In this document: positions 2,962-20,434 of the stretch, piece after piece
Position numbering within the stretch: the first letter of the stretch is position 1
Layout of the letters: every line of letters starts with the position of its first letter
Assembly (NCBI GenBank): GCA_004377365.1
Contig: SOHZ01000648.1
Span: 1-52,576 of the forward strand
Reading direction: 5' to 3'
Origin: Anaerolineales bacterium
GTDB taxonomy: Bacteria; Chloroflexota; Anaerolineae; E26-bin7
DNA length: 52,576 bases
The notes under the pieces: generated by a model
What the model was told of the DNA's origin: nothing
Seen by the model: the letters and a program-made list of their open reading frames with translations, nothing else
Database searches by the model: none
Program-made: the position numbers and the translations under genes

Positions 2962-3004
2962 AGTCGGTCACTTCTCAAATCTGGCTTCGTACGCGTTCGG
3001 GGGT

Positions 3005-3091
3005 GTCATTGCGAGGAACGAAATGACGAAACAATCTCCACCGTTGAGAGCAATTGCACCTTGGGGATTGCTTCGCTCCGCTCGCAATGAC
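3005..3091. repeat. palindromic intergenic repeat element (arms gtcattgcgag / ctcgcaatgac)
   Basis: 11-nt terminal inverted arms at 3005-3015 and 3081-3091, plus internal complementarity. The element translates to the 'CHCERSEAIP'-type artefact ORF. There is one copy in this window. Confidence 0.6.
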
Positions 3092-3136
3092 AGATCCAGA
3101 GGTGGTCTTGCTCATTTTCGACCTCCACCTGAGCGA

Positions 3137-3423
3137 TTACCTGGCTTCTTCCTCTGCTAACTCTTCCCGCTTGGCAGAGAGATAAGTAGAAACTGAGGTC
3201 TTTTTGCCTCTGAGCATTCCACGGGCAGTTTCGATAGGGTCTTCGGAGAGGGGCACAACGATCAAGTTTTGCCTGCGTCAATCCATCGCAGCTTAGCCTT
3301 GGGCCCAATCTGATATTTTCGCCTGAGGGCAAGAGGGATCTCTGTACGTCCCTGACGCGAGACCACGGTAATGGCGCCAGTCTCCGCTGAATAGATCGTT
3401 GCAGTCTCCTTCAGCTTTGTCAT
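3137..3423 (-). pseudogene. AbrB/SpoVT (MazE-like) domain protein, frameshifted
   Basis: The ATG at 3423 follows an AGGTGA RBS. Frame A reads 'MTKLKETATIYSAETGAITVVSRQGRTEIPLALRRKYQIGPKAKLRWIDAGKT*', with its stop at 3262-3264. The expected last beta-strand and tail, 'LIVVPLSEDPIETARGMLRGKKTSVSTYLSAKREELAEEEAR*', continues in another frame to 3137. The frame break lies at an A4 run (tttt at 3267-3270 on the plus strand). Confidence 0.5.
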
Positions 3424-3446
3424 TTCGCTCACCTCTTTCAGTTACG

Positions 3447-3475
3447 ATTATAGCATAGAACGTCAGCAGCGACAA
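3447..3475 (-). promoter_or_regulatory. sigma70-type promoter for the AbrB-like ORF
   Basis: Minus strand reads TTGTCG, a 17-nt spacer, then TATAAT (3470-3475 and 3447-3452). It sits about 24 nt upstream of the ATG at 3423. Confidence 0.45.
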
Positions 3476-3485
3476 GGGGGAAATC

Positions 3486-4601
3486 TTGCGCGTCTTGATG
3501 ATTTCCAAAGCCTGCATCGTAGGCGCTTATCAGAAAAAGCTGGAAGAACTGGCCCGGTTCGATGACGTGGAGCTGACGGTCATCGTGCCGCCCTATTGGC
3601 GCGACGAGCGGGGGGTGATGCCCCTGGAACGGGTGCACACAGCAGGCTATCGCTTCATTGTCGAGCCCATGCTGCTCAACGGCCACTTCCACCTGCACTT
3701 TTACCCCGGCCTGGGGAAGCACGTCCGACGTCTTCAACCAGACATCGTCCACATTGACGAGGAGCCTTACAACCTGGCCACCTTCCAGGCTATGCGCCTG
3801 GCCAAAAGGGTAGGGGCCAAGGCCCTCTTCTTCACCTGGCAAAATCTGAAGCGCAGCTATCCCTTTCCTTTCAACTGCATTGAGAGCTACAACCTGGAAA
3901 AGGCCGACTATGCTATCGCTGGCAACCAGGAGGCGGTGGAAGTGTGGCGGGGAAAGGGATATAAAGGACCCATCAAGGTAATCCCACAATTCGGAGTGGA
4001 TCCAGAAATCTACAAAACAGACAAATCTCAAATCTCAAATCTCAAATCTCAGTTTACTATTGGTTACGTGGGACGCTTGGTGGAGGAGAAGGGAGTGCAG
4101 GTGTTGCTGCACGCTGTGGACGGACTGGCGGGGGAGTGGCGTCTGCACATTCTGGGCAGCGGTCCCATACAATCCCAGTTGGAGGCTTTGGCCCGGCAAC
4201 TGGACCTCGTTGAACGGGTGAGCTTTGAATCGCCCATCCCCTCCGCTCAAATGCCAGCCTTCTACCATCAATTGGACACCCTGGTCTTGCCCTCTCTGAC
4301 CCGGCTCCACTGGAAGGAGCAATTTGGACGGGTGCTCATCGAGGCCATGGCTTGCGGGGTACCCGTGGTCGGTTCGCGCTCAGGTGAGATCCCCCACGTC
4401 ATCGGCCAGGCCGGGCTGACCTTTACCGAGGGTGATGTCCAGGAGCTCAGAGCCAGGCTTTCTCAATTGATGGACGATCCCGATCTCCGTGCAGACCTGG
4501 CCAAGCGAGGACGAGAGCGAGTGCTGGCCCACTACACCCAGGCCAGGATCGCTACGGCAACCTACGAGGTCTATCGGCAGATAGTTAAAATCTGGGGGTA
4601 G
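3486..4601 (+). CDS. glycosyltransferase family 1 (GT4-like)
   Basis: TTG start giving 'MRVLMISKA', typical of GT4. The C-terminal 'LPSL..EQFGRVLIEAMACGVPVVGSRSGEIPHVIG' is the GT-B donor-binding motif. Confidence 0.85.
   Translation: MRVLMISKACIVGAYQKKLEELARFDDVELTVIVPPYWRDERGVMPLERVHTAGYRFIVEPMLLNGHFHLHFYPGLGKHVRRLQPDIVHIDEEPYNLATFQAMRLAKRVGAKALFFTWQNLKRSYPFPFNCIESYNLEKADYAIAGNQEAVEVWRGKGYKGPIKVIPQFGVDPEIYKTDKSQISNLKSQFTIGYVGRLVEEKGVQVLLHAVDGLAGEWRLHILGSGPIQSQLEALARQLDLVERVSFESPIPSAQMPAFYHQLDTLVLPSLTRLHWKEQFGRVLIEAMACGVPVVGSRSGEIPHVIGQAGLTFTEGDVQELRARLSQLMDDPDLRADLAKRGRERVLAHYTQARIATATYEVYRQIVKIWG
4021..4051 (+). repeat. heptanucleotide tandem repeat (tcaaatc x4, first copy acaaatc) inside the GT4 CDS
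   Basis: Read directly: acaaatc tcaaatc tcaaatc tcaaatc tca. It encodes 'DKSQISNLKSQ', the linker between the two Rossmann halves. Confidence 0.9.
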
Positions 4602-4656
4602 GCAAATTTCGAAAACTGGCCGAAAAATTATGGCGGATTTCTTCAGTTCATTCTCG

Positions 4657-5028
4657 TTACACCAACTTGCTCAAATCCGCTGCTGCGCGCTTCATATCCA
4701 AGAAGAGCATACCCAGCTTGGTGTCTTTGCGGGCCAACACAGTAAGCACAGCCTCTTCGCCTACATCTAAAAGGAGGACGTAGCCGTCGTCGCCTCGGAT
4801 GTAAACCTGATCCAACGTTCCGCGTCCCAACTCTACAGCGATGCGCTCGCCCAGGGAAAGCATAGCCGCCGACATAGCCGAGACCCGGTCCTCCTCCACA
4901 TCAGGTGGCAGAGCCGAGGCCATAATCAGACCGTCAACGCTAACCAAAGCGGAAGCCTCAACGTCCGTCGAACTGGCCTGCAGGTCCCTCAAGCGATCCG
5001 TCAACTGCTCAGTCCTCGATTTCGCCAT
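4657..5028 (-). CDS. Roadblock/LC7 (MglB-like) domain protein
   Basis: 123 aa. 'VEASALVSVDGLIMASALPPDVEEDRVSAMSAAMLSLGERIAVELGRGTLDQVYIRGDDGYVLLLDVGEEAVLTVLA' matches the Robl_LC7 pattern. An AAGGAG RBS lies upstream. Confidence 0.8.
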   Translation of the reverse strand: MAKSRTEQLTDRLRDLQASSTDVEASALVSVDGLIMASALPPDVEEDRVSAMSAAMLSLGERIAVELGRGTLDQVYIRGDDGYVLLLDVGEEAVLTVLARKDTKLGMLFLDMKRAAADLSKLV

Positions 5029-5175
5029 CGCCTTATATCTCCTTTTCCCTATGGCTGACTATAGCCAAAGTACTAGATTTAGCCCTTCGCTGCGCTCAGG
5101 GAACTTTTGCTCGGGCATAGGTAACGGGTGACGTGCAGAAAAGGGGCAACTGCACCATCTCCTCTCACTCGTTCT

Positions 5176-6081
5176 TCACCCTGGCCCAATCGCATCATGA
5201 TGGTCCTCATCACTCACTCCTTGCTGCTTACAGAACCCCGGAGGATCAGAGTCCAGAGTTTTCAGAGCCTGTCCTGAGCCCCGTCGAAGGATCGAAGGGT
5301 CCGGAGAGGAGCCGGGGGCCATCACTACCCGAAAACCGATGTTCTCGTAGGGGATGTCCGGGTTGAGCTTGGAGCGGCAGGCACAGCGGACGAAACACTC
5401 ATCGTGGCTGAACGCCCCGCCACGCAACACACGGGGGATGCTGTCCAGCGCATCCAGGTCCTCGCGGCCACCGGCCGAATCGTAAGGGGACTTGAACGAT
5501 GGCTTTTCCTGGTTCTTTCTCCACAGGCTACGCGTCCACTCCCACACGTTGCCAGCCATGTCCAACAATCCGTAAGGACTGGCCCCTTCGGGGTAGGCCC
5601 CCACCAGCGTGGTATCCCCCTTGCCGCCCTCTTTACTGTTGCATCGCTCCGCGTCCCACCGGTTGCCCCAGGGATAGATGCGCCCATCGCTGCCCCGCGC
5701 CCCCTTCTCCCATTCGGCTTCGCTGGGCAGGCAGTAGGACTTGCCGGTGACCTCGGCCAGCCAGTGACAGTAAGCTATAGCGTCATGCCAAGAGACCTCA
5801 ACCACGGGATGCTCCTCTTTGCCTCTTGGTGGTTTCCCATCTTCCCAATGTTTCGGCTGCTTGTGGCCGATAGCCTGCACAAAGGCAGCGTACTGAGCGT
5901 TGGTCACCGGCGTCTTGGCCAGGTAGTAGTCGGGCAGGTACAGAGTATGTTGGGGCTGCTTATCATCATCCGCATCTTGGTCCAAGCTGGGATCGCTGCC
6001 CATGAGGAACTCGCCAGCGGGGATGAGGACCATCTCCGGCTTGAAAGGCTGAGAGCGCTCCATGATGGCTTTTTCGATCAT
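5176..6081 (-). CDS. soluble FGE-sulfatase (SUMF1-fold) domain protein
   Basis: 'MVLIPAGEFLMGSDP..QPQHTLYLPDYYLAKTPVTNAQYAAFV..CLPSEAEWEKGARG..YPWGN..RVLRGGAF..IGFRVVMAP'. No TM helix. The last ~50 codons run into a REP-like element. Confidence 0.85.
   Translation of the reverse strand: MIEKAIMERSQPFKPEMVLIPAGEFLMGSDPSLDQDADDDKQPQHTLYLPDYYLAKTPVTNAQYAAFVQAIGHKQPKHWEDGKPPRGKEEHPVVEVSWHDAIAYCHWLAEVTGKSYCLPSEAEWEKGARGSDGRIYPWGNRWDAERCNSKEGGKGDTTLVGAYPEGASPYGLLDMAGNVWEWTRSLWRKNQEKPSFKSPYDSAGGREDLDALDSIPRVLRGGAFSHDECFVRCACRSKLNPDIPYENIGFRVVMAPGSSPDPSILRRGSGQALKTLDSDPPGFCKQQGVSDEDHHDAIGPG
5262..5300. repeat. REP-like element copy A (cctgagc / gtcgaagg motif family)
   Basis: 'cctgtcctgagccccgtcgaaggatcgaaggg' shares the cctgagc and gtcgaaggg/cccttcgac motifs with the copies at 37829, 38350 and 45427. 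Confidence 0.6.
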
Positions 6082-6296
6082 GCTTCCTTCCTTCTGCCTC
6101 CTTATCCGATTTTGTCAGCATTCGTCCTCTTCCGAGGATTTCTCCTCAATTATTCTCATCTATCCCAGCCGCCAGGGCGAGCAAGGTCAGGCGAGCGTCG
6201 CCCTGGGGTAGCACGGCCACCGGCAGCGGGCAGAGCCGGTCCGGGTGACCACACATTCGGTGCGGACCTGGGTGTCGCCGTTTGTCCTGTCACCGG

Positions 6297-6521
6297 CTAC
6301 CTGTGAGCCAGGGCGACGCCGACCATCAGCGCCAGGAGCAACAGGATGGCCAGAACGGCCCGCACGCTACGCGCACGGGCTTGCTCTCGCAGAAAGTAGT
6401 AGGGGGCACGCCGGGACTGGATATAGGCCCGGACGGCCACTACAGCCGCCAGCAAGAGCGCTACCAGGCACCCGCCCAGGATCCAGGGGACACAGGCAGC
6501 AGGCAAGGCAAAGTTCACCAT
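6297..6521 (-). CDS. small two-TM membrane protein (hypothetical)
   Basis: 74 aa with two hydrophobic helices ('WILGGCLVALLLAAVVAV', 'AVLAILLLLALMVGVAL'). A GAGGGA RBS is present. It lies directly downstream of the HTH gene. Confidence 0.45.
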   Translation of the reverse strand: MVNFALPAACVPWILGGCLVALLLAAVVAVRAYIQSRRAPYYFLREQARARSVRAVLAILLLLALMVGVALAHR

Positions 6522-6555
6522 TCATTCCCTCGAGTTCTATGCTAATCGGTCGCTG

Positions 6556-6756
6556 CTAGAACCAACAGGCTTGCTTCTCCTGGTACCAGCGGTTGAACAT
6601 GAACCGCTCGAACTCGCCAAGCTTGATGCGGTAAACGCCCCTTACCTGCCTGGCCTGGAGCTCGCCGCGTCGAATGAGCCGACGCACTGTAGATACATTG
6701 ACACCCAGCCGCTCGGCGACGTCTCTGGTGGTCAAATAGTCTCTTTCATCCATCAA
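6556..6756 (-). CDS. excisionase/MerR-type helix-turn-helix DNA-binding protein
   Basis: 66 aa. 'LTTRDVAERLGVNVSTVRRLIRRGELQARQVRGVYRIKLGEFERFM' matches the excisionase-family HTH_17 pattern. Confidence 0.7.
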   Translation of the reverse strand: MMDERDYLTTRDVAERLGVNVSTVRRLIRRGELQARQVRGVYRIKLGEFERFMFNRWYQEKQACWF

Positions 6757-6941
6757 TCATCTCCACTCAGAGCCTCAATCACTGCGTCTACGTCTGGACA
6801 AACGGTAAACGAGGAGGTGAGGCCGGCAATGCGCAGGGCACACTGGACAGAATCAGTGCTTTCCCGGTTCGCGGTTCCCGTCTCTATGTTTTGACTGCAT
6901 TCGTTCAATAAAAGCGTTGCTTGCGGGAAAGACGCCACCAC
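6753..6941 (-). CDS. hypothetical small protein, translationally coupled to the HTH gene
   Basis: 62 aa ORF whose stop overlaps the HTH start (ATGA at 6753-6756). No family recognised. It overlaps ORF 6853-7107 in another frame, so a frameshifted single gene is possible. Confidence 0.3.
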   Translation of the reverse strand: MVASFPQATLLLNECSQNIETGTANRESTDSVQCALRIAGLTSSFTVCPDVDAVIEALSGDD

Positions 6942-7107
6942 CGTTCTCTATGTCGATCAAGATCAAATCGGCGACCATCTTCCGGTTCGATGGCGTATCC
7001 CGGGGACGGATCTTCCAACGGAAGTCGCCCCCGATTGTGTCCCGTATCCATGTGTCAAACTCTTCTCTGCTGCCAGTCAAGTGTTTACTCATGCCCGCGT
7101 TTTTCAA
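6853..7107 (-). CDS. hypothetical protein
   Basis: 84 aa ORF ('MSKHLTGSREEFDTWIRDTIGGDFRWKIRPRDTPSNRKMVADLILIDIENGG...'). No family recognised. Confidence 0.3.
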   Translation of the reverse strand: MKNAGMSKHLTGSREEFDTWIRDTIGGDFRWKIRPRDTPSNRKMVADLILIDIENGGGVFPASNAFIERMQSKHRDGNREPGKH

Positions 7108-7233
7108 ACCCCCTTTGTTTTACTCGATCATTTGCAAAATGCGGTTGGCAATATCGAGGTATGCCTTAGCAATGTTGCCCTCTGGATAACTAAACCTGGC
7201 CTTTGGATTCGTCTTGCGGCCAGTTCCCGCTCA

Positions 7234-7710
7234 TTAGCGGCCACCGCCGACTCGTTCCACGAGTTCGTCAAAGCGCCGGCGCAGCGCTGCTGCTCGCTGG
7301 TCCGCTTGTCGATATTCAGGGGGGCGTGTGGTTGGCAAACGCGCCTTGAGTTCCTGCAACAGGTGGATTGCCTCTTGATGGTTGGTTCCGTCCTGGTAGA
7401 GCGCCTCAATCGAGTCCAGAGCCTGCTCCCAGTCGCCAGAGACGATTTGTTGCATGATCTTGTGCCGCAGTTGCCGGTGTCTTCCTTCGCGCTCTTGCTG
7501 TGCTTTTTCCCTGATCACCTGCTCGGCCAGCGCCTCTTTCGCCTGGCGATGAGCCTCCTCCACCTCCGTGTCCGACAACTCTTGCTGCCGCAGAGTGTAG
7601 CGCAGCCAGCTACAAAGCTGGAGCGCGCGTCGCCACTGCTCGTCGGCCATCGCTATCGCCAACTCTTTTTTCCAGATCTCTATCTGTTCCCCGGCCGTCG
7701 TTTCTGTCAC
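7234..7710 (-). CDS. hypothetical charged/alpha-helical protein
   Basis: 158 aa. It is Glu/Arg/Gln-rich with probable coiled-coil segments ('EEAHRQAKEALAEQVIREKAQQEREGRHRQLRHKIMQQ'). It runs in the same direction as the flanking genes. Confidence 0.5.
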   Translation of the reverse strand: MTETTAGEQIEIWKKELAIAMADEQWRRALQLCSWLRYTLRQQELSDTEVEEAHRQAKEALAEQVIREKAQQEREGRHRQLRHKIMQQIVSGDWEQALDSIEALYQDGTNHQEAIHLLQELKARLPTTRPPEYRQADQRAAALRRRFDELVERVGGGR

Positions 7711-7976
7711 GTTGTCTTACCCCCTCTACCAGAATTGTGTGGCGTCACACACTTTTACGCCTCTTGCTCGTTTACCCCGAATTCCGTCGCCGCGCTCGAT
7801 AACGAGTGAGCATGCACGGCATGGACTTGATCTTGGTCATAGGATAGCGATGCTGCCAAAGCCCCCGGTAACACAGAGCCGGGTTCGTGCACCAACCGAT
7901 GGAGGCGATCTTCCAGGGATTGTAGTAACGGCACGTGCCGCACCGCTTTATGGCTAACTGCTCTCTGTCTTTTTCT

Positions 7977-9239
7977 CTAGGCAGCCTGTTCCGCCAAGCG
8001 GTCCAGGTATCGCCGGATGGCGTCCTTGTATTCGCTGTATTCCGGCTCTCTCTCCAGGATGGTGAACTTGATCCATAGGGCAATGATTGGGTCGGTGATG
8101 TAATAGCGGTGGCCCTCCCGACCGATGAGGTCAAAGTCGGCCAGGCGCTTCAGATAAGAGCGCACCTCTCCCGGCGTTCGCTTGAGCGGAGCGGCGATCT
8201 CGGAGAGGGTCTGTTTGCCCCCTTCAGCCAGCACCAGCAACACCGAGCGCAACGTGGTCCTGCCCCGGGCCTCGGCCAACGACGTCTCTAGTCGGTGCTG
8301 GCAGTACTGGTAGATCCGCCCTTCCCGCGTCAGGATCTCCTCATAGATTGCCCGATCCAGGACATCACCGCCGGTTTTGTCCTGATCCAGCCGGCGCATG
8401 GCGGTCGTCAGGCAGTTCAGGTAAAAGGGGTGACCAGAGGTGAATTCGAACAGTCGAGCGATGGTCTCTTGCGTCAGCAGGTGCTCCGGTAGGCTCTTGC
8501 GGCAGAACTCGGCCGTGGCCGCCCGATCAAAGGGGGGCACAGGTACAACCTGGAACTGGTCAAAAAGAGGGGACGTCGCGGATTGCACGGTCCGCTTCAC
8601 CATGCTGGTGTTCGAACTGGCCACAATATAACCCACTTCGATCTGCCGGCTGAGGGCCTGGCCCACGACGCTTAGCATATCCTTGATGTGCGGAAAGCTG
8701 TCAAGCTGGGTGACATTATGGAACTCGTCCAGGATGACGAGCGGTTTCCTGCCCGTGTGCTGGGCCGTCTGTTCCAGGCAGGACAGAGTGATCTCTAGCA
8801 GCAGACGTTCGTCGGGCCGATCTTTCTCCATTTCTCGTGTCACCTGCCGGGCGGTGGCGACGATGGTCTCTTCCCGCGTCTGGTCAACGACTGTTAGCAA
8901 ACTGGCCGCGTCGAGTACCCCGCCCGATTGCTCCACCTGCCGGCCATCAGCCTCGACGAACGAATGGCCGATGGCCGCCAGCAAGCGGACGGCAAAGACA
9001 GAGGGCACAGAAAGGTTGCGGGCCACGTTGAAATACACGGGCACCAGGGGCGAATGGCGTTCGTGGAGGAGATCATCGGCGAATCGCTGAACGATCATTG
9101 TCTTGCCGATGCGCCACTGCCCGACCAGGGCCAGGTTCACGCCCTCGCCCTGCTGGATCAGATCGGCGTTGCGGTGCAGCGCCGCCAGAATCTCGTCCCG
9201 GTCAGTAAAGAGGGCACGTTCGTGTTCTCTGAGCAACAT
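7977..9239 (-). CDS. AAA+ ATPase (archaeal-ATPase/ORC-Cdc6-like) with C-terminal winged-helix domain
   Basis: Start refined to the ATG at 9239, preceded by GGGAGGTG. Walker A 'GQWRIGKT', Walker B 'LVILDEFHNV'. The C-terminus 'TLSEIAAPLKRTPGEVRSYLKRLADFDLIGREGHRYYITDPIIALWIKF' looks like a wHTH (DUF234-like). Confidence 0.75.
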   Translation of the reverse strand: MLLREHERALFTDRDEILAALHRNADLIQQGEGVNLALVGQWRIGKTMIVQRFADDLLHERHSPLVPVYFNVARNLSVPSVFAVRLLAAIGHSFVEADGRQVEQSGGVLDAASLLTVVDQTREETIVATARQVTREMEKDRPDERLLLEITLSCLEQTAQHTGRKPLVILDEFHNVTQLDSFPHIKDMLSVVGQALSRQIEVGYIVASSNTSMVKRTVQSATSPLFDQFQVVPVPPFDRAATAEFCRKSLPEHLLTQETIARLFEFTSGHPFYLNCLTTAMRRLDQDKTGGDVLDRAIYEEILTREGRIYQYCQHRLETSLAEARGRTTLRSVLLVLAEGGKQTLSEIAAPLKRTPGEVRSYLKRLADFDLIGREGHRYYITDPIIALWIKFTILEREPEYSEYKDAIRRYLDRLAEQAA

Positions 9240-9312
9240 ACCAGCACCTCCCTTTCGCCTCGTGTCAGAGCTCCAACGCATGTTCTACGCAGTCAAACGT
9301 GGATCTGGGAAG

Positions 9313-9378
9313 TTAGGCCAATTGGCCTAACTCTGCTAATTATAGTATAATTCTGGAAATTATGCCAATTGGCCTAAC
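9313..9378. promoter_or_regulatory. paired palindromic operator-like sites flanking an AT-rich -10 region
   Basis: A perfect 18-bp palindrome, ttaggccaattggcctaa, lies at 9313-9330. A second copy, gccaattggcctaac, lies at 9364-9378. 'tatagtataat' lies between them. The region is immediately upstream of the ATPase-wHTH gene. Confidence 0.4.
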
Positions 9379-9477
9379 CTGGCTGGAGGAGAATAACGGA
9401 AATGGAGCGACTCAGGTATGGGAAGAAAGAGACATAGGACATGTCACACAGACGAAGTGTTCCCCATCCGCTACTAT

Positions 9478-9825
9478 GGGACGGTTGTCTGCCTGGGGGT
9501 GGGCAGGGGTATCTGGGCTATCGCGCCGCTGGCCAAAGACCTGAGGGACGCCGGCAACCGGATCGTCTCTATCCTCGATGCCGGCGACGAGTTGGATCTT
9601 TTGTGGGAGGAGGCCATCCGGATCGTCAGCGATGAAGCGATTGTCTCTGCTCTGGATGGGTCGCGGGGAGAGCCCCTCCACGCGGGCCATCCTCTCTTTG
9701 AGCGACTGAGCTGGGGCGACGTCAACCTGGTCGTGGCCGTTGGGCCGATGGAAGAAGTCAAACGGCTGGGATTCATCGTCGAGGCGCAGGGATGTGCCTT
9801 CGTCGCGCTGCCGGCGGAGCGTTAG
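9478..9825 (+). pseudogene. fragment of an NfnA/PyrK-like FAD/NAD(P)-binding oxidoreductase (NAD-binding domain only)
   Basis: 'GTVVCLGVGRGIWAIAPLAKDLRDAGNRIVSILDAGDELDLLWEE...DGSRGE...VNLVVAVGPMEEVKRL' resembles the 'GGGvGiaP...G..v..i.g.r....l......TdDGS.G..G....DlvvaiGP..Mm' pattern. The N-terminal FAD domain and the C-terminal Fe-S segment are missing. Confidence 0.45.
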
Positions 9826-9912
9826 TGCGAGGAGTTAGATGTCTTGACTGCAATAGGCAAGAACCCACCACAGGCGAAGAGAGAAGGTATGAAAACCGTC
9901 GTCGCCGGCGCG

Positions 9913-10190
9913 TTGGGCGGGTGCTCATCGAGGCCATGGCTTGCGGGGTGCCCGTGATTGGTTCGCGTTCAGGTGAGATCCCTCACGTCATCGGTCAGGC
10001 CGGGCTGACCTTCACCGAGGGTGATGTCCAGGAGCTCAGAGCCAGGCTTTCTCAATTGATGGACGCCCCGGCTCTCCGTGCAGACCTGGCCAGGCGAGGG
10101 CGAGAGCGGGTGCTGGCTCATTACACTCAGGCCAGGATCGCCGCTGAGACCCACGAGGTGTACCGCCAACTGCTGAACCGGACCGAATAG
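9913..10190 (+). pseudogene. 3'-terminal fragment of a GT4 glycosyltransferase, a duplicate of 4324-4601
   Basis: 'RVLIEAMACGVPVIGSRSGEIPHVIGQAGLTFTEGDVQELRARLSQLMDAPALRADLARRGRERVLAHYTQARIA' is near-identical to the C-terminus of ORF 3486-4601. Over the first ~230 nt the identity is roughly 90% by eye, and the last ~30 nt diverge. No N-terminal GT domain lies upstream. Confidence 0.75.
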
Positions 10191-10217
10191 GGATTGAGGT
10201 CTAATGCAGTTCAGTTA

Positions 10218-10350
10218 AGCGCCGTCGGTTGAGTAGTGAAACGTATCGAAACCACGACGCGGCTCATGCAATGCGAAATCCATTACAAAAGCCGCTCGCG
10301 TGGCCTCGATACAGTCTTCCGCTACGCTCCAGACCTACTCGGCCGACGCT
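10218..10350. repeat. long nested-hairpin repeat element (family with 25432-25601)
   Basis: Outer arms are agcgccgtcggttgagtag / ctactcggccgacgct. Inner arms are cgtatcgaaaccacgacgcggc / gccgctcgcgtggcctcgatac. The signature words gagtag, cgtatcga, tcgatac and ctactc are shared with the second copy. Confidence 0.6.
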
Positions 10351-10479
10351 CGCTCCCTTATCTAAACCGTATTGGATCTAGTCCCCTGGATTGTGATCCG
10401 CCGCGACCCGCGTAAAAACACAGGGGAACGGAACAACCCGCTCCCCTGTTGACTCGTTGACTTGTTGACCCCCCCCAGC

Positions 10480-11469
10480 TTACGGCGTGGTCTCGGTGGG
10501 TACCGTGCTGGGCGCAATGGTGGCCCCGGACATGGTCTCACCGGGCGTCAGATTGAGGAAGGGAACAAAGCTGCCGGGAGGCATGATGCCCCAGGTGACC
10601 CTGCCCTGTGGGTCGCTCAGGGATTCCACAAATTGCAGTTGGATGATGGCCGGGTACTCTGCCAGGGCTTCACCCTTAACCTGGATGGCTCCTGCCTCCG
10701 CGTCCGCCAGCAGTTTCACCTTTTCCGCATCGCCCCTGGCTCGTTCGATGGTAGACTGGGCCTCACCTTTGGCCATCTCGACCTGGGCCTGAGCGCGATA
10801 AACTGCCTGCTCAGCCTTGTGCTGCTCCGTGATGATGGTCTCAGCCTCGATCTGTTTCTGCTCCACGGCCTGCCTGTAATCCTCGGTGAACTCTATCTTG
10901 CGCAGGCCGAAACTGTCGAGGACGATTCCCTTCTCGGCAAAAAGGGGCGTGAGCAACTCTTCAAATTGATCCTGGACTGCCTGGATGTTCCCCGTGTAGA
11001 GGTCGAGGGCCGCGTATTCCTTGGGAATGTTACGGGCCAGGATGCGGCTGTGGAACTTTACCACTTTCTCCACCACATCTCGCTCGTCACCGATGTTGTT
11101 GGCGATCCAGTCCACCCTCGCCGGGTCAATGCGGAAGCGAATGGAATACTTCAGGATGATCTGCTGCCCGTCCGCGGTGGTGGTATCCGTGGGAAAGTCC
11201 ACGTACTCAGCCTGTGACTCCGCCTCGCCAACGGTTTGGTAGATGATCTCCTGGGTGCGATAGCGCTCCACCCCCTCAATGAGAGGCATCTTCCAGTTCA
11301 GGCCCGGCTGCATGAGCCTTCCCGTCACTGCTCCGAAGCGAGTGACTACTCCCACTGTGCCGTATTGGATCTGGACATAACTTGAGGATGCCAGGATCAG
11401 AACCAAGAACACCACCCCGGCGACGATCAGCACACTGCAACTGGGCAACGCAACCTGTTGCTTTCTCAT
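10480..11469 (-). CDS. SPFH/Band-7 (prohibitin/HflK-C-like) membrane protein
   Basis: N-terminal TM helix 'VLIVAGVVFLVLILA'. 'VVTRFGAVTGRLMQPGLNWKMPLIEGV' and the coiled-coil 'EQKQIEAETIITEQHKAEQAVYRAQAQVEMAKGEAQ' are typical of Band 7. Confidence 0.8.
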   Translation of the reverse strand: MRKQQVALPSCSVLIVAGVVFLVLILASSSYVQIQYGTVGVVTRFGAVTGRLMQPGLNWKMPLIEGVERYRTQEIIYQTVGEAESQAEYVDFPTDTTTADGQQIILKYSIRFRIDPARVDWIANNIGDERDVVEKVVKFHSRILARNIPKEYAALDLYTGNIQAVQDQFEELLTPLFAEKGIVLDSFGLRKIEFTEDYRQAVEQKQIEAETIITEQHKAEQAVYRAQAQVEMAKGEAQSTIERARGDAEKVKLLADAEAGAIQVKGEALAEYPAIIQLQFVESLSDPQGRVTWGIMPPGSFVPFLNLTPGETMSGATIAPSTVPTETTP

Positions 11470-12460: not shown

Positions 12461-14527
12461 CTACGGCCTCTCAATGCGAGGCTCAACCCACACCGCCCAG
12501 TCCTGGCTGGGAGACCCGTTAGCCAGTAGTCTTAACGAGACATAGGAAGACCCCACAAAGATAGAGGGAAACTCAAAAGAGACATCCACAAGTGAGTTAT
12601 TATATGGCTTAACCTGGGTCCACGCCGTACTACCCCCGTTAGTGCCAGCTGTCACCATAAATCTCACATTGCCGGCGGCAGCATTCTTGAGGAATCCCAC
12701 CTTGGCCACGAACCTATCACCTGCTTGAATAGGCGAGGGCAAGTGGTACTTGCCTTGAATCCATCCGTCATTAACCCACTGAGGATGGGTTTCAAGCGCT
12801 TTCGGCCAGGTGCTCCCATCCTCAAGCTCCATACCGCCGACCGCTATGACGAAACCTTCATTGTCACCAGTGCCTCCTGGACACGGAAGCGAACCTGCCC
12901 CACTTGTCCAATTGGCATCACACATGTGGTCCATGAAATCGTATACCACCGTGGGGCCCGCAGGCGTTACATTAACCGTGACCGTCTTGTCCTCCGTGCT
13001 GGAATCCAGCTTGACTACGTGCAGGGTGTAGGTGGTAGTGGAAGCAGGACAAGTAGATCCCGACCAATGGGGACCGGTCACACCAGAGTTGGCGTACTCG
13101 GCACCGCTCAGGGTAGCTGTCTGCACGTTCTCAATGTGCACCCTCAGGGTTGTGCAATTCCCTGCGGTGATGGTATCGTCATCCACCGTGAACTCAATAA
13201 CCGATGAGGGAGGCGGCGGTTGGGTCGGCGTCGCCGTCGGAGTCTCCGTCGGAGTCGGAGTCGCCGTCGCCAGTGCGGGCACTACAATCTGCACGCTACA
13301 GGTCTGGCCAAAGACCTGCCCGTCGGGACTCTTCATCCGCCAGTGGCCGGTGTAGGTGCCCGGAGCGCTGGGCGCATACATGGTCACCCCAATGTCCACG
13401 TTGGCCCCCGCTGCGGTGGCGGGCACAGCCTGGGAAGGAGCAGCCCCCATCTGGTCGCCGGACACAAACACCCACGTGTACCCGCTCTCCCAGGGACAAC
13501 TGCCGCTGTTGCGGATGCGCCAAATCTTATCAACCTGTGTTCCAGGTGAGAAGACAGTCCCATCGGGCACGGTCACGTCGGCCACAAAGGCCGCATCCAG
13601 AGTGCAACCGGTGGGCGTGGGGGGGGGTGTCCCGGTGACGACGACAGGTGTCCCGGTCGCGGTGGGCGTACCTGGAGCCAGGGTGGATGTCACTTCACCT
13701 GGCCCAGGTGTGGTAGCCCCAGTGACGTTGACGGTGATGGCCTCCGGCTGGCTGACCCCTCCAGCAGCATTATAGGCTTTGAGCATCAGAGTATAGGTGC
13801 CAGGGGCCGACGCCCGCCAGGACTGCCGGGAGATGAAGGGCGATTGCCCCTGCGGGTTGGGACTGACGTCAGAGTGGTAGAGAACCCCATTGACCAACAG
13901 CTCGACACGGGTCACCCCTTTGGGATCGGTCGCCGTGACCTGGACAATGACCTCCTGTCCCACCGGCACCTGGCTGCCACTGGCAGGCGAGTTGATGACC
14001 ACCGTTGGCACTCCCCCGGCTATCTTCTTGCCCCGCTGGGTGTAAAGGTAGGCTCCAACGGCAGCCACGACGAGCAAGACGACAACCGCCGCGCCCAAGA
14101 GTCCCAAGGCCATCCACGACAGGCCCCCTGGCCCCTTCCTGGCCTCTGCCGGTGGGGCTGGCGGCGGGGCATAAGCTGGCGGCCGGGGGGCCGGCCCGAC
14201 TGCGGTCGGGTAAGCCCCCGCTACTGCCGGGCACTGAAAACCCAGTTGGGCCTTGCCCAGGCCGATGGTGTCGCCGTCGCGCAGGGCCTGGGCACCGGTG
14301 ACGCGCACACCGTTGACAAAGGTGCCGTTGGTGCTGCCCAGGTCCCTGATGACTGGCTGACCTCTTTCCCAGGTGATGCTGGCGTGGCGGCGAGAGACCT
14401 CAGAGTCAGTGACGACCACATCGCTGCCCACCACGCGGCCAAGAATGATGCTGTCCTTGGACACGGAAAAACGCTGGCCACGCTGGGGGCCTTGTTGTAC
14501 GGTTAAAGTAATAGAGGGTTGCTGCAT
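12461..14527 (-). CDS. FHA domain / TM / Ig-like / NBR1-like Ig / C-terminal unknown-domain protein (paralog 1)
   Basis: 688 aa with an AAGGAGG RBS. FHA segment: 'GRVVGSDVVVTDSEVSRRHASITWERGQPVIRDLGSTNGTFVNGVRV'. TM helix: 'WMALGLLGAAVVVLLVVAAVGAYL'. NBR1-like segment: 'AAFVADVTVPDGTVFSPGTQVDKIWRIRNSGSCPWESGYTWVFVSGDQMG..YAPSAPGTYTGHWRMKSPDGQVFG'. Confidence 0.8.
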   Translation of the reverse strand: MQQPSITLTVQQGPQRGQRFSVSKDSIILGRVVGSDVVVTDSEVSRRHASITWERGQPVIRDLGSTNGTFVNGVRVTGAQALRDGDTIGLGKAQLGFQCPAVAGAYPTAVGPAPRPPAYAPPPAPPAEARKGPGGLSWMALGLLGAAVVVLLVVAAVGAYLYTQRGKKIAGGVPTVVINSPASGSQVPVGQEVIVQVTATDPKGVTRVELLVNGVLYHSDVSPNPQGQSPFISRQSWRASAPGTYTLMLKAYNAAGGVSQPEAITVNVTGATTPGPGEVTSTLAPGTPTATGTPVVVTGTPPPTPTGCTLDAAFVADVTVPDGTVFSPGTQVDKIWRIRNSGSCPWESGYTWVFVSGDQMGAAPSQAVPATAAGANVDIGVTMYAPSAPGTYTGHWRMKSPDGQVFGQTCSVQIVVPALATATPTPTETPTATPTQPPPPSSVIEFTVDDDTITAGNCTTLRVHIENVQTATLSGAEYANSGVTGPHWSGSTCPASTTTYTLHVVKLDSSTEDKTVTVNVTPAGPTVVYDFMDHMCDANWTSGAGSLPCPGGTGDNEGFVIAVGGMELEDGSTWPKALETHPQWVNDGWIQGKYHLPSPIQAGDRFVAKVGFLKNAAAGNVRFMVTAGTNGGSTAWTQVKPYNNSLVDVSFEFPSIFVGSSYVSLRLLANGSPSQDWAVWVEPRIERP

Positions 14528-14675
14528 CTCATTTCCTCCTTAGTCTAGGGAGATTAAAGTCCACCGCCTTGGTATCGTTGGTGCCACCCTGGTTGTCGGC
14601 GGTGTAGAGCGTGATAGTAGCCCGGCACGGCATGCCGTTAGACTTGTCGGCGAGCCTGTTTGTGCCAATAGATGG

Positions 14676-16604
14676 TCAGGGGCTGATGGTTAGGGTCCAG
14701 ACCTTGACATTATTGTTCTCGTTCGTTTCGGCAACTTCATTGCGGTTATCAGCTTGGACCTCAACGTCATAATAACCGACCGAGGGGTACTTAAATGTGA
14801 CCGTTTTTGTACACGAAGCATATTGGGTATTTGCCGGACAGGATTCTTCCTGCCAGTCGAAGCCAGGCCCTTTTCGCCAACGAAAGTGCGAAGCCGGGAA
14901 AAAGGGTCCCCCGCTGGGATAGGTGTCGGTGACAATCATGATGAAGAGGCTGATCGTATCTATCACCGCCGGGTTGGCCGGGCTGGAATCCATCTTCTTG
15001 ACGTACAGGTCGTAAACGGCAGGCGAGGGGCAGACACCAGCTACGTGAACCGTGACCGTCCTGTCGGTCGTGCTGCCGTCGGTGAGCTCCACGTGTAAAG
15101 TGTAGGTGGTATCGTTACAAGGGCAGACTTGCTTCTCTTTATGACCGCCGATCACTGGCTCTCCGTCCAGCCAAGCAGCTCGCACATGCTCCACTCTGGC
15201 TCTGACCCAGGTACATTCCCCGGCGTTGATGTGGTCTCGGTCCACTGTGAGGCTGATCTCCGCCCCAGGCGGGGGCGGCGAGGTAGGCGTAGCCGTAGGT
15301 GTAGCGGTAGCCAGGCTCGAAACCACGATCCTCACACTGGACGTCTGGCCAAAGACCTGCCCATCGGAACTCTTCATCCGCCAGTAGCCGGTGTAGGTGC
15401 CCGGAGTACTGGGTGCATACATGGTCACCCCAATGTCCACGTTGCCACCCACGGCAGTGGTGGGCACAGCCTGGGAAGCAGCCGCCCCCATCTGGTCGCC
15501 GGACACGAACACCCACGTGTACCCACTCTCCCAGAGACAACTGCCGCTGTTGCGGATGCGCCAAATCTTGTCAATGCGGGCCCCTGGCTCAAAGACGGTG
15601 CCATCGGGCACGGTCACGTCGGCCACAAAGGCCGCATCCAGGTTACAGGGGGTGGGGGTCACGGTCGGTGTGGGGGTCACCACGATAATGACGGGGGTCT
15701 GGGTATCGGTGGGCGTGGCCGTCGGCCCCGGCGGGGTAGCCGTCGGCGTGGCCGTAGGCCCCGGCGGGGTAGCCGTCGGCGTGGCCGTAGGCCCCGACAG
15801 CGTGGGCGTGGCAGCCCCGGTGACGCTGACGGTGATGGCCTCCGGCTGGCTGACCCCTCCAGCAGCATTGTAGGCCTTGAGCATCAGAGTATAGGTACCA
15901 GGGGCCGATGCCTGCCAGGAGTGCCGGTAGATGAAGGGCGATTGCCCCTGCGGGTTGGGACTGACGTCAGAGTGGTAGAGAACCCCATTGACCAACAGCT
16001 CGACACGGGTCACCCCTCTGGAATCGGTCGCCGTGACCTGGACAATGACCTCCTGTCCCACCGGCACCTGGCCGCCGCTGGCAGGCGAGTTGATGACCAC
16101 CGTTGGCACCTTGGCTACCTTTTCGCCCCGCCGGGTATAAAGGGAAGCTCCAACGGCAGCCACGACGAGCAAGATGACAGCCGCCAGCCCAAAGAGCCCC
16201 AAGGCCATCCACGACAGACCCCCTGGCCCCCTCCTGGCCTCCACCGGTGGGGCTGGCGACCGGGGGGCCGGCCCGGCTACGGTCGGGTAAGCCCCCGCTA
16301 CTGCCGGGCACTGGAAACCCAGTTGGACCTTCCCCAGGCCGATGGTGTCGCCGTCGCTCAGGGCCTGGGAACCAGTGATGCGCACACCGTTGACAAAGGT
16401 GCCGTTGGTGCTACCCAGGTCCCTGATGACAGGCTGACCTCTTTCCCAGGTGATGCTGGCGTGGCGGCGAGAGACCTCAGGGTCACTGACGACCACATCG
16501 CTGCCCCGCACACGGCCGAGAATGATGCTGTCTTTGGCCACTGAAAAACGCTGGCCACGCTGGGGGCCTCGTTGTACGGTTAAAGTAATAGAGTGTTGCT
16601 GCAT
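14676..16604 (-). CDS. FHA domain / TM / Ig-like / PT-repeat linker / NBR1-like Ig / CARDB-like protein (paralog 2)
   Basis: Start refined to the ATG at 16604 ('MQQHSITLTV'), after AAGGAG. About 90% aa identity to paralog 1 over the first ~430 aa. The C-terminus 'YYDVEVQADNRNEVAETNENNNVKVWTLTISP' looks CARDB-like and differs from paralog 1. Confidence 0.8.
   Translation of the reverse strand: MQQHSITLTVQRGPQRGQRFSVAKDSIILGRVRGSDVVVSDPEVSRRHASITWERGQPVIRDLGSTNGTFVNGVRITGSQALSDGDTIGLGKVQLGFQCPAVAGAYPTVAGPAPRSPAPPVEARRGPGGLSWMALGLFGLAAVILLVVAAVGASLYTRRGEKVAKVPTVVINSPASGGQVPVGQEVIVQVTATDSRGVTRVELLVNGVLYHSDVSPNPQGQSPFIYRHSWQASAPGTYTLMLKAYNAAGGVSQPEAITVSVTGAATPTLSGPTATPTATPPGPTATPTATPPGPTATPTDTQTPVIIVVTPTPTVTPTPCNLDAAFVADVTVPDGTVFEPGARIDKIWRIRNSGSCLWESGYTWVFVSGDQMGAAASQAVPTTAVGGNVDIGVTMYAPSTPGTYTGYWRMKSSDGQVFGQTSSVRIVVSSLATATPTATPTSPPPPGAEISLTVDRDHINAGECTWVRARVEHVRAAWLDGEPVIGGHKEKQVCPCNDTTYTLHVELTDGSTTDRTVTVHVAGVCPSPAVYDLYVKKMDSSPANPAVIDTISLFIMIVTDTYPSGGPFFPASHFRWRKGPGFDWQEESCPANTQYASCTKTVTFKYPSVGYYDVEVQADNRNEVAETNENNNVKVWTLTISP
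15710..15800 (-). repeat. ~36-nt tandem coding repeat (~2.5 copies) encoding PTATPTATPPG units
   Basis: Read directly: 'gccgtcggcgtggccgtaggccccggcggggta' is repeated. It is present only in FHA paralog 2. Coordinates are approximate. Confidence 0.7.
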
Positions 16605-16747
16605 CGTCACCTTCTCCTTACACAGTACACAAACCAACGCTTCTACTCATAAATCCCCCAACCATCTCTAGTCCTCGTTATGGGGCAGCGATGGACAGGC
16701 GAAAACTGATGATGGGGGAACGTGGTCAAAATCAATGGCTTGCTCTC

Positions 16748-19238: not shown

Positions 19239-19260
19239 GACGCCCCCTAACAGCGCAGGA

Positions 19261-20184
19261 TCAGAAGCCGAGCATCTCCACCATGAGTGCTTTCTGCACG
19301 TGCATCCGGTTCTCCGCTTCGTCCAGCACCACCGAATGGGGACCATCGAGCACGTCAGCCGTGATCTCATCACCACGATGGGCTGGCAGACAGTGCATCA
19401 CCAGCACGTCCCCTTTGGCCAGGTCCACCAGGGCCTGGTTGACCTGATAAAGAGGGAAGATTTTGCTACGCTCCTCGGCCTCACTTTCCTGGCCCATGCT
19501 GGCCCAGACGTCGGTATAAAGGGCGTCGGCTCCTTTGGCCGCCACCGCCGGGTCGGTGGTGACAACGATTTCGCTGCCGCTCTCTTGGGCCAACTTCCTG
19601 GCCCACCCTACCACGCTTGGATCGGGCCAGTATCCCCTGGGGCAGGCCGCCGCCATGTTGATGCCCATGGTGGCGCAGATGAGCAGGAGTGAGTGGCAGA
19701 CGTTGTTGCCATCGCCCAGCCAGGCCAGCTTGAGCCCCTGCAACTCGCCTTTGTGTTCATGGAGGGTAAGAAGGGCAGCCAGAGCCTGGCAAGGGTGCTC
19801 GTGATCGGAGAGGGCATTGATCACGGGCACACTGGCTTCCTGAGCCAGTTCTATTACGGATTCATGGGCATAGGTGCGAGCCATGATGATCTCTACCCAG
19901 CGGGAGAGGTTGGCTGCAATGTCGGCTATCGTCTCCCGAGTGCCAAACCCGATGTCCTGACCCAGGTAGATGGCATGGCCGCCCAATTGGGTCATCCCAG
20001 CCTCAAAGGTCACCCGGGTGCGCAGCGAGGGCTTCTCGAAGATCATGGCCATCGTCTTGCCGGCCAGGAGTGGCGGATTGCCTCCGGCTTTCCATTCTGC
20101 TTTGAGAGCCCGCGCCCGTTCAATGACGCACTCAACTTCTTCACGGGAGAAATCCCCCATGCTGACCAGGTTTTTGCCTTTCAT
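19261..20184 (-). CDS. argF: ornithine carbamoyltransferase
   Basis: 'FEKPSLRTRVTFE', 'HPCQALA', 'DVWASMG' and 'HCLPAHRGDE' are the carbamoyl-phosphate and ornithine binding motifs. 307 aa, with an AAGGAGG RBS. Confidence 0.85.
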   Translation of the reverse strand: MKGKNLVSMGDFSREEVECVIERARALKAEWKAGGNPPLLAGKTMAMIFEKPSLRTRVTFEAGMTQLGGHAIYLGQDIGFGTRETIADIAANLSRWVEIIMARTYAHESVIELAQEASVPVINALSDHEHPCQALAALLTLHEHKGELQGLKLAWLGDGNNVCHSLLLICATMGINMAAACPRGYWPDPSVVGWARKLAQESGSEIVVTTDPAVAAKGADALYTDVWASMGQESEAEERSKIFPLYQVNQALVDLAKGDVLVMHCLPAHRGDEITADVLDGPHSVVLDEAENRMHVQKALMVEMLGF

Positions 20185-20255
20185 TAGTTTCCTCCTTCGT
20201 AGATAACTCCTGTAGTAAACGTAGGCCCTCGCAAGCGAGGGCCAGAGGTGGGAGG

Positions 20256-20329
20256 TGCGCCCGACAGGACTCGAACCTGCAACCTAGGGTTTAGGAAACC
20301 CTTGCTCTATCCACTTGGGCCACGGGCGC
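20256..20329 (-). tRNA. tRNA-Arg (anticodon CCT)
   Basis: The reverse complement folds as a 74-nt cloverleaf. Acceptor GCGCCCG/CGGGCGC, anticodon stem AGGGT/ACCCT with loop TTCCTAA, T-arm GCAGG-TTCGAGT-CCTGT. No encoded CCA. Confidence 0.85.
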
Positions 20330-20362
20330 ACGTCAATTGTGGTTGAACTGGGGTGAACAAAG

Positions 20363-20434
20363 CACCCCCGGGGCGACTCGAACGCCCGCACATGGCTCCG
20401 GAGGCCACTGCTCTATCCGCTGAGCTACGGGGGC
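20363..20434 (-). tRNA. tRNA-Arg (anticodon CCG)
   Basis: 72-nt cloverleaf. Acceptor GCCCCCG/CGGGGGT (G1-U72 wobble), D-arm GCTC-AGCGGATA-GAGC, anticodon loop CTCCGGA, T-arm GGGCG-TTCGAGT-CGCCC. Confidence 0.8.

Follow-up and report, generated by a model that had tools for sequence, protein, structure and literature searches.

Incoming DNA can replace the 3' end of a bacterial gene and leave the displaced original behind as a truncated direct repeat. Such an arrangement is present in the stretch of 52,576 nt analyzed here (contig SOHZ01000648.1 of assembly GCA_004377365.1, forward strand; referred to as the window throughout), which belongs to an Anaerolineales bacterium of the Chloroflexota. 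The gene in question encodes a glycosyltransferase (GT) of the GT4 type, and its last 93 codons recur more than 5 kb downstream. The cargo between the two copies includes genes for a Roadblock/LC7 protein, an FGE-sulfatase-domain protein, an HTH_17 DNA-binding protein and an AAA+ ATPase, as well as an nfnA pseudogene.

Several described systems resemble this locus. For the C-terminal displacement of Rhs proteins, a model with a circular intermediate and a single crossover was proposed (Jackson et al., 2009, PMC2935791), and related cases are the orphan cdiA-CT/rhs-CT arrays and the effector-immunity displacement of the T6SS (type VI secretion system) in Vibrio, for which a model of homology-facilitated illegitimate recombination (HFIR) was put forward (PMC5361080). 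As in the Rhs loci, the intact gene in the window has gained a new 3' end together with cargo, and the former 3' end lies downstream, truncated at its 5' side and with a conserved stretch kept; a single homologous crossover with a circle is proposed, no integrase is found, and the retained length and the breakpoints vary. Prophage e14 (and phage 21) integrates in icd of Escherichia coli K-12 and leaves the pseudogene icdC (Hill et al., 1989, as cited in PMC13626634). There, as in the window, the insertion point falls within the 3' end of a housekeeping protein gene, which remains functional because the element supplies a substitute end of slightly different sequence. The original end is displaced to the far side of the insert, where it forms a pseudogene in direct repeat, and an exchange between the two repeats would give back one chimeric gene. 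Campbell-type insertion-duplication and HFIR are known from natural transformation (Prudhomme et al., 2002; Meier and Wackernagel, 2003, as cited in PMC5361080; PMC3240628). In such events the incoming DNA is anchored by a short homology, one of its junctions is illegitimate and machinery of mobile elements is not needed, while a circle with one homologous segment yields a direct duplication flanking the insert; both descriptions fit the locus considered here.

The duplicated GT 3' end and the empty sites in relatives

The GT gene (3486..4601, plus strand) is intact and encodes 371 aa with matches to the Pfam families Glycos_transf_1 and Glyco_transf_4. Full-length orthologs with 57-72% identity were found in 80 metagenome-assembled genomes (MAGs) of Anaerolineae/Chloroflexota, in which the gene usually lies directly after a second GT gene, and an exact-protein look-up of the intact GT gave no match on record. 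A repeat search over an 8.5-kb region returned one direct repeat of 256 nt (4324-4579 against 9913-10168; 89% identity, spacing 5589), the runner-up in the same region being only 26 nt long. Compared in codon register, the homology runs from 4323 and 9912 to both stop codons (4599-4601 and 10188-10190), which gives 93 codons for each copy with equal frame and length, and it includes a perfect block of 52 nt (4425-4476, identical to 10014-10065). The left edge of the downstream copy is sharp at 9911/9912, and no GT similarity was detected upstream of 9911. This copy sits in a chimeric open reading frame (ORF, 9792-10190) in which 39 codons unrelated to any GT precede the 93 GT codons and no GT N-terminal domain is present. 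An earlier sequence-only reading of this DNA had described a repeat of the GT 3' end in the same orientation, at roughly 90% identity with a perfect block of about 50 nt, and a second copy without the N-terminal domain; the measurements agree with it on each of these points.

The upstream copy (copy A, 4323..4601, plus strand) is attL-like and the downstream copy (copy B, 9912..10190, plus strand) is attR-like. The 42 differences between them fall mostly at third codon positions, with a synonymous divergence (dS) of about 0.4 and a ratio of nonsynonymous to synonymous divergence (dN/dS) of 0.13-0.20. Such a ratio argues that the copies diverged as working coding sequences under purifying selection, not by duplication in place followed by decay. 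Copy B is still open over its 93 codons and ends in the tail ...ETHEVYRQLLNRTE before the stop.

Four related Anaerolineae metagenome contigs (L082-L085), whose nucleotide identity to the flanks of the insertion is 86-92%, carry the GT gene directly followed by an SPFH gene on the minus strand, with no cargo between them. This is the empty site that had been suggested as a check. In the window, the SPFH/Band 7 gene lies in the right flank (10480..11469, minus strand; Pfam Band_7; 86-90% nucleotide identity to L082-L085), and a terminator hairpin was found at 10420-10449 by terminator scan and folding. The GT body on the left and the SPFH gene on the right are equally close to the same empty-site contigs; a Big_7/SH3 gene after the SPFH gene was seen in L082 only among the four. 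Used as a query, the copy-B ORF retrieved C-terminal fragments of real GT orthologs in close relatives (P0002-P0007). Upstream of the repeat edge these fragments continue as GT sequence, and four of the contigs on which they lie are L082-L085. A full-length second GT gene at the place of copy B, near 9.9 kb, was not seen in any relative examined (80 GT loci and L082-L085). Judged from gene order in these contigs, the segment 4602-9911 represents an insertion relative to the ancestral GT-SPFH order.

The first 860 nt of L083 consist of AT-rich, radical-SAM-like DNA with a CNLSCNYCP motif, joined to the GT at about residue 188. Either the metagenome contig is chimeric at this point or the same GT gene was rearranged independently, and this part of L083 was left unused.

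Native and imported sequence in the two copies

The C-termini of the orthologs read ...ETHEVYRQLLNRTE/G, as in copy B, which matches the ortholog tails of P0002-P0007; the intact gene of the window ends instead in ...IVKIWG. At the nucleotide level, the empty-site DNA matches copy B at 91-92% identity through the stop codon and beyond, and copy A at 86-90% with the alignment stopping at 4579. When the two copies are divided, identity to the four empty-site orthologs is 92-95% for the left part of copy A and 71-74% for its right part (4477-4601, the last 125 nt), 88-93% for the left part of copy B and 86-92% for its right part, and 88-90% for the GT body in the two longest contigs. At sites where the four orthologs agree, changes private to the window amount to 8.8% in copy A (20/226 sites, concentrated after 4538), 2.7% in copy B and 2.8% in the SPFH gene, which indicates that copy B evolved with the flank and the 3' end of the working gene did not. 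From these comparisons, copy B is the original 3' end of the gene, displaced, and the 3' end of the working gene is imported and encodes a different tail. The rule invoked in the sequence-only reading, that elements targeting the 3' end of a gene bring a replacement and leave the displaced original as a direct repeat, is followed here, the tail of the working gene being non-native and copy B native.

A site-by-site comparison with the four empty-site orthologs located the change within copy A. Between 4368 and 4406 the orthologs agree with copy A at 5/5 informative sites, and from 4424 to the stop they agree with copy B at 28/30 (Fisher p = 6e-5). Copy A is therefore native-like over 4323-4406 and of imported type from 4424 to the stop, where it encodes the tail ...ATYEVYRQIVKIWG. 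The switch between 4406 and 4424 places the crossover most parsimoniously at 4407-4423, and the end of the 52-nt block serves as the conservative limit of the interval (4407..4476, plus strand). The intact gene at 3486..4601 is a chimera of native codons 1 to about 308 and an imported 3' end. In copy B, five private transitions are found at 9957-9995, four of them at third positions and one changing V to I; mostly synonymous changes in this left part are expected if it evolved inside a working gene. The reciprocal pattern, native-left and foreign-right in the attL-like copy, foreign-left and native-right in the attR-like copy, is as expected from one crossover with a circular molecule.

The position of the switch varies between strains. 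Another sample, X2, yielded a contig of 559 nt (4073-4631, 93% identical) that resembles the orthologs as far as 4538 and is of imported type from 4553 on, so that its switch point lies 115-145 nt further 3' than that of the window (4407-4423). Differing switch points are expected for homologous exchange and not for a fixed att core, with the proviso that later gene conversion could blur the comparison and the test for a fixed core is not absolute. In both X2 and X3, contigs lead from GT sequence ending in the A-type tail to the spacer on the Roadblock side, and the one from X2 extends back to the GT body. A second X2 contig keeps 9871-9919, including the 9911/9912 junction, is without 9920-10103 and has different DNA upstream of 9871. 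The two X2 contigs, taken together with the differences between L081 and the window described below, point to a locus under ongoing homologous exchange that is not cut at one fixed core. Short ORFs of the GT C-terminus that lie on long contigs (P0116, P0159 and others) were considered as recurrent relics of the same kind and dropped, since all start at an internal Met inside the GT and look like gene-calling or frameshift fragments instead of chimeric relics.

The arrangement was also followed in public reads and assemblies. By sampled words, 96% of the region is present in one marine-sediment run (X1, probably the source run), and about 20 other runs contain parts of it. Exact X1 unitigs span each of the four junctions at even depth (16-23x): from the GT body into the left part of copy A (4022-4358), from the right part of copy A into the Roadblock gene (4447-4924), from the nfnA end and a short filler into the left part of copy B (9741-9947), and from the right part of copy B into downstream sequence (10036-10355). 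An NCBI MAG contig (L081) has the identical gene order at 99.9% identity to the window. The unitigs come from Logan, for which we take k to be 31; those of X1 break inside the 52-nt perfect block, and the phase across it is beyond their reach. The integrated form and an empty site accompanied by a 5.6-kb circle differ only in this phase. Evidence for the integrated phase comes from the two assemblies and from the 559-nt X2 contig, in which GT body, imported-type tail and Roadblock-side spacer are physically linked. No joint skipping 5589 nt, which would represent the empty-site form, was among the joints listed for four runs, where the unitigs are too short. L081 and the window differ at 12 positions in total, and these are clustered: six lie within 32 nt of the spacer between the Roadblock and FGE genes (5088-5119), two within 7 nt at the 3' end of the ATPase gene (8154-8160), and three in copy B (10135-10152), where they swap states with copy A or the orthologs; a single-base indel is found at 13618. 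The clustering suggests patch recombination at the strain level or consensus mixing, and the differences in copy B could result from short-patch conversion between the repeats or from read mixing in assembly.

Cargo, recombinase search and neighboring genes

The cargo (4602..9911) measures 5310 nt, or 5589 nt with one repeat copy, and is absent from L082-L085. The gene next to the GT encodes the Roadblock/LC7 protein (4657..5028, minus strand; Pfam Robl_LC7, 3.7e-19) and is convergent with it; 55 nt separate the two stop codons, and no terminator or hairpin was found in this spacer. The Roadblock protein is 89-97% identical to many Anaerolineae proteins. In relatives its gene usually adjoins a class-Ib tRNA synthetase gene, and the contexts examined (L099-L111) are of this tRNA-synthetase type, which indicates that the copy in the cargo is away from its usual place. 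Homology to relatives stops within about 50 nt of the gene, and such gene-limited homology could also reflect distance. In the closest relative (L107), a GT 3' end with a native-type tail is followed by a terminator, a Roadblock gene and an FGE gene, both on the minus strand. The junction in L107 is different from that in the window, and its order shows that a GT-Roadblock-FGE arrangement exists naturally, as is required of the donor in the model discussed below. The FGE-sulfatase-domain protein of the cargo (5176..6081, minus strand; Pfam FGE-sulfatase, 2.9e-56, residues 15-253) is encoded by an ORF whose last 48 codons or so enter, and are formed by, a high-copy repeat (5266-5299, 'CCTGTCCTGAGC..GTCGAAGG'), with a depth spike and contig breaks at 5263-5299.

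Further along the minus strand lie a hydrophobic ORF of 74 aa (6297..6521), called as a gene in L081 and without a family match, and the HTH_17 protein of 66 aa (6556..6756; MerR or excisionase-type; Pfam HTH_17, 1.3e-13), which also matches PHROG excisionase/regulator families and the PADLOC models mad1 and AbiEi-like HTH. An ORF of 158 aa (7234..7710, minus strand) has weak Pfam matches only and is kept beside the ATPase in relatives, with 60-80% identity in L087, L090, L091, L093 and L094. The AAA+ ATPase itself (7977..9281, minus strand; Pfam ATPase_2/AAA_22) has a C-terminal winged helix-turn-helix (wHTH) domain. The block from the HTH_17 gene to nfnA (6556-9829), or parts of it, was found in 13 metagenome loci at 77-87% identity, with other neighbors and without GT fragments; in L090 the similarity ends exactly at 9829, where that contig continues into an unrelated dehydrogenase operon. 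An inverted-repeat search detected twin perfect palindromes of 20 nt (GTTAGGCCAATTGGCCTAAC) at 9312..9378 (fold z-score -3.5), which bracket two overlapping divergent sigma-70-like promoters with 11/12 and 10/12 matches in a promoter scan. Similarity to all 13 ATPase loci reaches at least about 9373 and thereby covers most or all of 9312-9378. The region is probably the control region of the ATPase gene, an autoregulated operator, and the plus-strand promoter predicted in it would transcribe the nfnA pseudogene and copy B.

The nfnA relic (9466..9804, plus strand; NfnI small subunit/PyrK-like) is an internal NAD-domain fragment. It aligns with residues 101-214 of the NfnI small subunit, a protein of 284 aa (PDB 5jca_S, E 2.4e-15), and has no match in Pfam, and no intact nfnAB is present in the window. 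Beside the ATPase gene it is conserved in four related contigs, L090 and L092-L094, and is interrupted by in-frame stops in two of them, L090 and L092; it is an old pseudogene imported with the ATPase block. That the relic travels with the block in these four contigs was the reason for rejecting another origin, as debris of the target site, which had been considered from the order GT, small transmembrane gene, nfnA, nfnB in two distant genomes (L018 and L024). In L093 (145-520) and L094 (870-1260), the nfnA pseudogene is cut at the equivalent of about 9655 and fused to the C-terminal stub of a DDE (rve-type) transposase (...FYNHQRPHQGLSYQTPAEVHF), and about 1 kb of other DNA lies between this fusion and the ATPase gene; the flank of the block collects gene fragments repeatedly. 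Between the block and copy B of the window there is a filler of 82 nt (9830..9911), and its right end, 9911/9912, is an illegitimate junction. The sequence-only reading had named the NfnA/PyrK-like NAD relic to the left of copy B and had identified the Roadblock, FGE-fold, HTH and AAA+ ATPase-wHTH genes, all of which the PDB and Pfam matches bear out. Its statement that all cargo is on the minus strand holds for these four genes; the relic is on the plus strand.

A recombinase was searched for by Pfam on each cargo ORF of at least 50 aa, by a six-frame scan of 6050-8000, and with PHROGs and PADLOC. These searches recovered no integrase, transposase or recombinase and no remnant of one in the cargo, the only related match being the HTH_17 protein, and each unannotated gap is shorter than 480 nt. 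The absence of a recognizable integrase noted earlier is upheld. Composition gives no signal against the flanks either: the GC content of the cargo is 58.3% against 57.9% for the window, and 26% of windows of the same size are at least as far from the window average in tetranucleotide usage. Flank-like composition combined with the lack of an empty site had been named as evidence against an insertion; the composition is indeed indistinguishable but empty sites exist in L082-L085, and therefore the insertion reading stands. The cargo is made of chromosomal-type genes, which are 77-97% identical to copies in other contexts in relatives. A self-mobile integrative island, one of the possibilities raised earlier, finds no support in a segment with no recombinase or remnant, with flank-like composition and chromosomal genes, and with a variable switch point.

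Some features around the insertion deserve mention. Three short high-copy repeats (3004-3097, 5266-5299 and 10213-10374) reach a depth of 450-1870x in public runs, compared with about 17-20x nearby, and unitigs break at them. The first is palindromic, of the type 'GTCATTGCGAGG...CCTCGCAATGAC', and lies in the GT-GT spacer. The third lies between copy B and the SPFH gene and is absent from the empty-site contigs, which marks it as a separate small insertion. The GT-GT spacer (2962-3485) is 524 nt long here and about 5-40 nt in many related genomes; besides the palindromic repeat, it contains an ORF of 56 aa (3262-3432, minus strand), which is called as a gene in L081 and has no Pfam match. A protein of 421 aa with TIR and FGE-sulfatase domains is encoded at 22-1287 and has strong PADLOC TIR matches; with a second FGE-domain protein in the cargo, FGE-domain genes have multiplied in this neighborhood. 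Two tandem paralogous proteins with FHA, Big_7 and N_BRCA1_IG domains (688 and 653 aa) are encoded at 12461-14527 and 14676-16637, and L082 aligns to 12461-16637 only in pieces, so this region is variable between relatives. Adjacent tRNA-Arg genes (CCT, CCG) lie at 20254-20434 by an aspartate/ornithine carbamoyltransferase gene, with no integrase beside them, and no Rfam family was found in the window besides these two tRNAs.

Formation of the locus and its significance

We consider it reasonably probable that a circularized fragment of about 5.6 kb from a related Anaerolineae donor entered the 3' end of the GT gene through one homeologous crossover. The recipient would have had the order GT, terminator, SPFH, as in the empty-site contigs, and the donor lineage the order GT, Roadblock, FGE and further cargo genes. 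A donor fragment reaching from GT codon 279 to about 80 nt past the nfnA pseudogene would have circularized, its closure being the illegitimate junction 9911/9912, and the circle would then have recombined once with the recipient GT, somewhere near 4407-4476 in the 279 nt at the end of the gene where the two sequences are homeologous. The product expected from these steps is the native body with the left part of copy A, followed by the right part and tail of the donor, the cargo, and a 5'-truncated copy that is donor on the left and native on the right. Host homologous recombination would be the most likely catalyst, and an integrase encoded by the element would not be needed; we infer this catalyst, the circular intermediate and the route of DNA entry, while the repeat, the empty sites, the identity of the native copy, the mosaic, the lack of a recombinase and the chromosomal nature of the cargo are shown by the comparisons above. 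A comEC gene (ComEC/Rec2-type, with Competence, DUF4131 and metallo-beta-lactamase domains) lies at 16863-19376, 7 kb from the insertion. ComEC is the DNA-uptake channel of natural transformation, and its presence makes DNA uptake plausible.

Several observations weigh against this explanation or call for a weaker form of it. The foreign state of the left part of copy B is read from five sites (5 changes in 84 nt, compared with 2 in the 178 nt of the right part; p = 0.036), and we regard its foreign origin with modest confidence; the first two informative sites (4328 and 4361) are private to copy A and point in the opposite direction. A donor lineage was not found, nor was a full-length GT combining the left part of copy B with the right part of copy A. 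A protein search with the C-terminal 129 aa of the intact GT returned no GT with the ...IVKIWG tail, in a set of mostly query-length matches from which full-length donors were possibly missed. The phasing of the 52-nt block is taken from two assemblies, which share 99.9% identity and may not be independent of each other. The excisionase-like HTH_17 gene makes a recombinase acting in trans conceivable. Finally, the cargo is a patchwork and may have built up in several steps, as the gene-limited homology around the Roadblock gene, the occurrence of the ATPase block elsewhere and the X2 junction without the sequence upstream of 9871 suggest.

A degenerate or non-autonomous integrative element, whose site-specific recombinase was lost or acts in trans and whose attP carried a substitute GT 3' end, would account for the e14-like anatomy, in which the 3' end of the element keeps the target intact and the original is left as a downstream pseudogene (PMC13626634). 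The exact restoration of GT frame and length and the excisionase-type gene in the cargo fit this explanation, and Roadblock and FGE genes beside the same GT 3' end in L107, with another junction, hint at a preferred site. We nevertheless regard such an element as unlikely, if worth serious consideration: no frame shows an integrase, a transposase or a remnant, and the gaps all stay below 480 nt; homology is present on both sides of the crossover, on the left for 84 nt or more, instead of beginning at a core; strains differ in their switch points; the cargo consists of conserved chromosomal genes with varied contexts and native composition; and 0/80 GT loci of other genomes carry an extra GT 3' fragment. 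The five-site evidence for a foreign left part of copy B leaves room for a different event, in which copy B is native throughout with a few mutations and a homologous crossover was combined with an illegitimate join without any circle, through HFIR bridging sister chromosomes or through unequal exchange. Foreign DNA with a single homologous anchor is known to enter by HFIR, which was also proposed for similar displacement arrays (PMC3240628, PMC5361080), and the sharp, illegitimate junction at 9911/9912 speaks for this route. On a single chromosome, however, HFIR replaces sequence and gives no duplication, and the private changes of the left part of copy B are clustered, at the rates given above, and mostly synonymous, which is unexpected for the neutral decay of a pseudogene; we judge this route quite improbable.

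The polarity of the event could also be reversed, the cargo side being native, with an A-type-tail GT followed by Roadblock and FGE, and the GT fragment and SPFH gene having been joined to it later by rearrangement or import. The GT-Roadblock-FGE adjacency in L107 and the X2 and X3 contigs (about 91-93% identical), which run the A-type tail into the Roadblock-side spacer with steady identity through the tail in X2, are compatible with such a history. Within the intact gene, however, identity to the SPFH-type relatives drops from 88-95% to 71-74% at the repeat, which makes the GT gene itself recombinant; moreover, GT body and SPFH flank are equally close to the same empty-site contigs, and in four relatives the GT is directly followed by SPFH. 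This history is accordingly very unlikely. A chimeric assembly across the repeat has to be considered, since the sequence comes from a metagenome, unitigs break at the repeat and the differences between L081 and the window cluster, three of them in copy B. Exact unitigs spanning four junctions at even depth, a second assembly with the same order and the 559-nt contig from another sample that links the GT body to the A-type tail speak against it. A tandem duplication of the GT 3' end in place with subsequent decay predicts a working copy near the orthologs and a drifting relic; the opposite was observed, with a dN/dS of 0.13-0.2. An origin by artefact or by duplication and decay is thus extremely improbable.

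The preferred model, the integration of a circularized donor fragment by a homeologous crossover, can be extended to a recurrent process. The 5.6-kb block would be, or derive from, an integrase-less circularizing element that uses its 279-nt homeologous copy of the GT 3' end as a landing pad and rides on host homologous recombination, and the GT 3' end would be a recurrent capture site in marine-sediment Anaerolineae. We regard this extension as rather unlikely. If it were true, Roadblock genes, FGE genes, the AAA ATPase block and gene fragments would accumulate at the GT 3' end and be exchanged there between lineages, and C-terminal displacement would be acting on a housekeeping gene outside toxin loci.

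Compared with the described systems, the locus appears to work like the C-terminal displacement model outside the rhs/CDI (contact-dependent inhibition) family. Unlike in rhs, the gene is a conserved glycosyltransferase and not a polymorphic toxin, the exchanged tip is an orthologous, functionally equivalent GT tail, and the cargo holds no toxin domain or immunity gene. A single displaced tip is present instead of an array, the host is an uncultured member of the Chloroflexota (Anaerolineae) from marine sediment, and the copies that recombined are 84-89% identical, whereas Rhs cores are near-identical. Prophage e14 encodes an integrase and an excisionase and excises on SOS induction; here no recombinase was found, the cargo is not phage-like, homology lies on both sides of the crossover and the switch point varies between strains. 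The Campbell-type and HFIR events of the sources above were laboratory events with near-identical anchors, whereas the event here is natural and fixed, with copies about 11-16% diverged; transformation in this organism is suggested by comEC. The alternative offered in the sequence-only reading, that two GT paralogs recombined, holds in a narrower sense: two homeologous GT 3' ends did recombine, and they came from different lineages. The event is ordinary in kind and no new kind of system; it is well documented and concerns an unusual gene in an unusual phylum.

The locus is a clean natural example of how an uncultured Chloroflexota lineage gained genes with no mobile-element machinery involved. 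It shows side by side an empty site, the native end in its displaced position, the imported end and a crossover interval tens of bases wide that varies between strains. For annotation, the 132-aa 'glycosyltransferase' ORF (9792-10190) and the 135-aa ORF at 9418-9825 are to be treated as pseudogene fragments and the intact GT as a chimera. The two repeats could recombine and delete the cargo. Displacement of 3' ends, known mainly from polymorphic toxin loci and integrase-bearing prophages, is thus also found at an ordinary cell-envelope glycosyltransferase gene, and here it took place between sequences that are 11-16% diverged.

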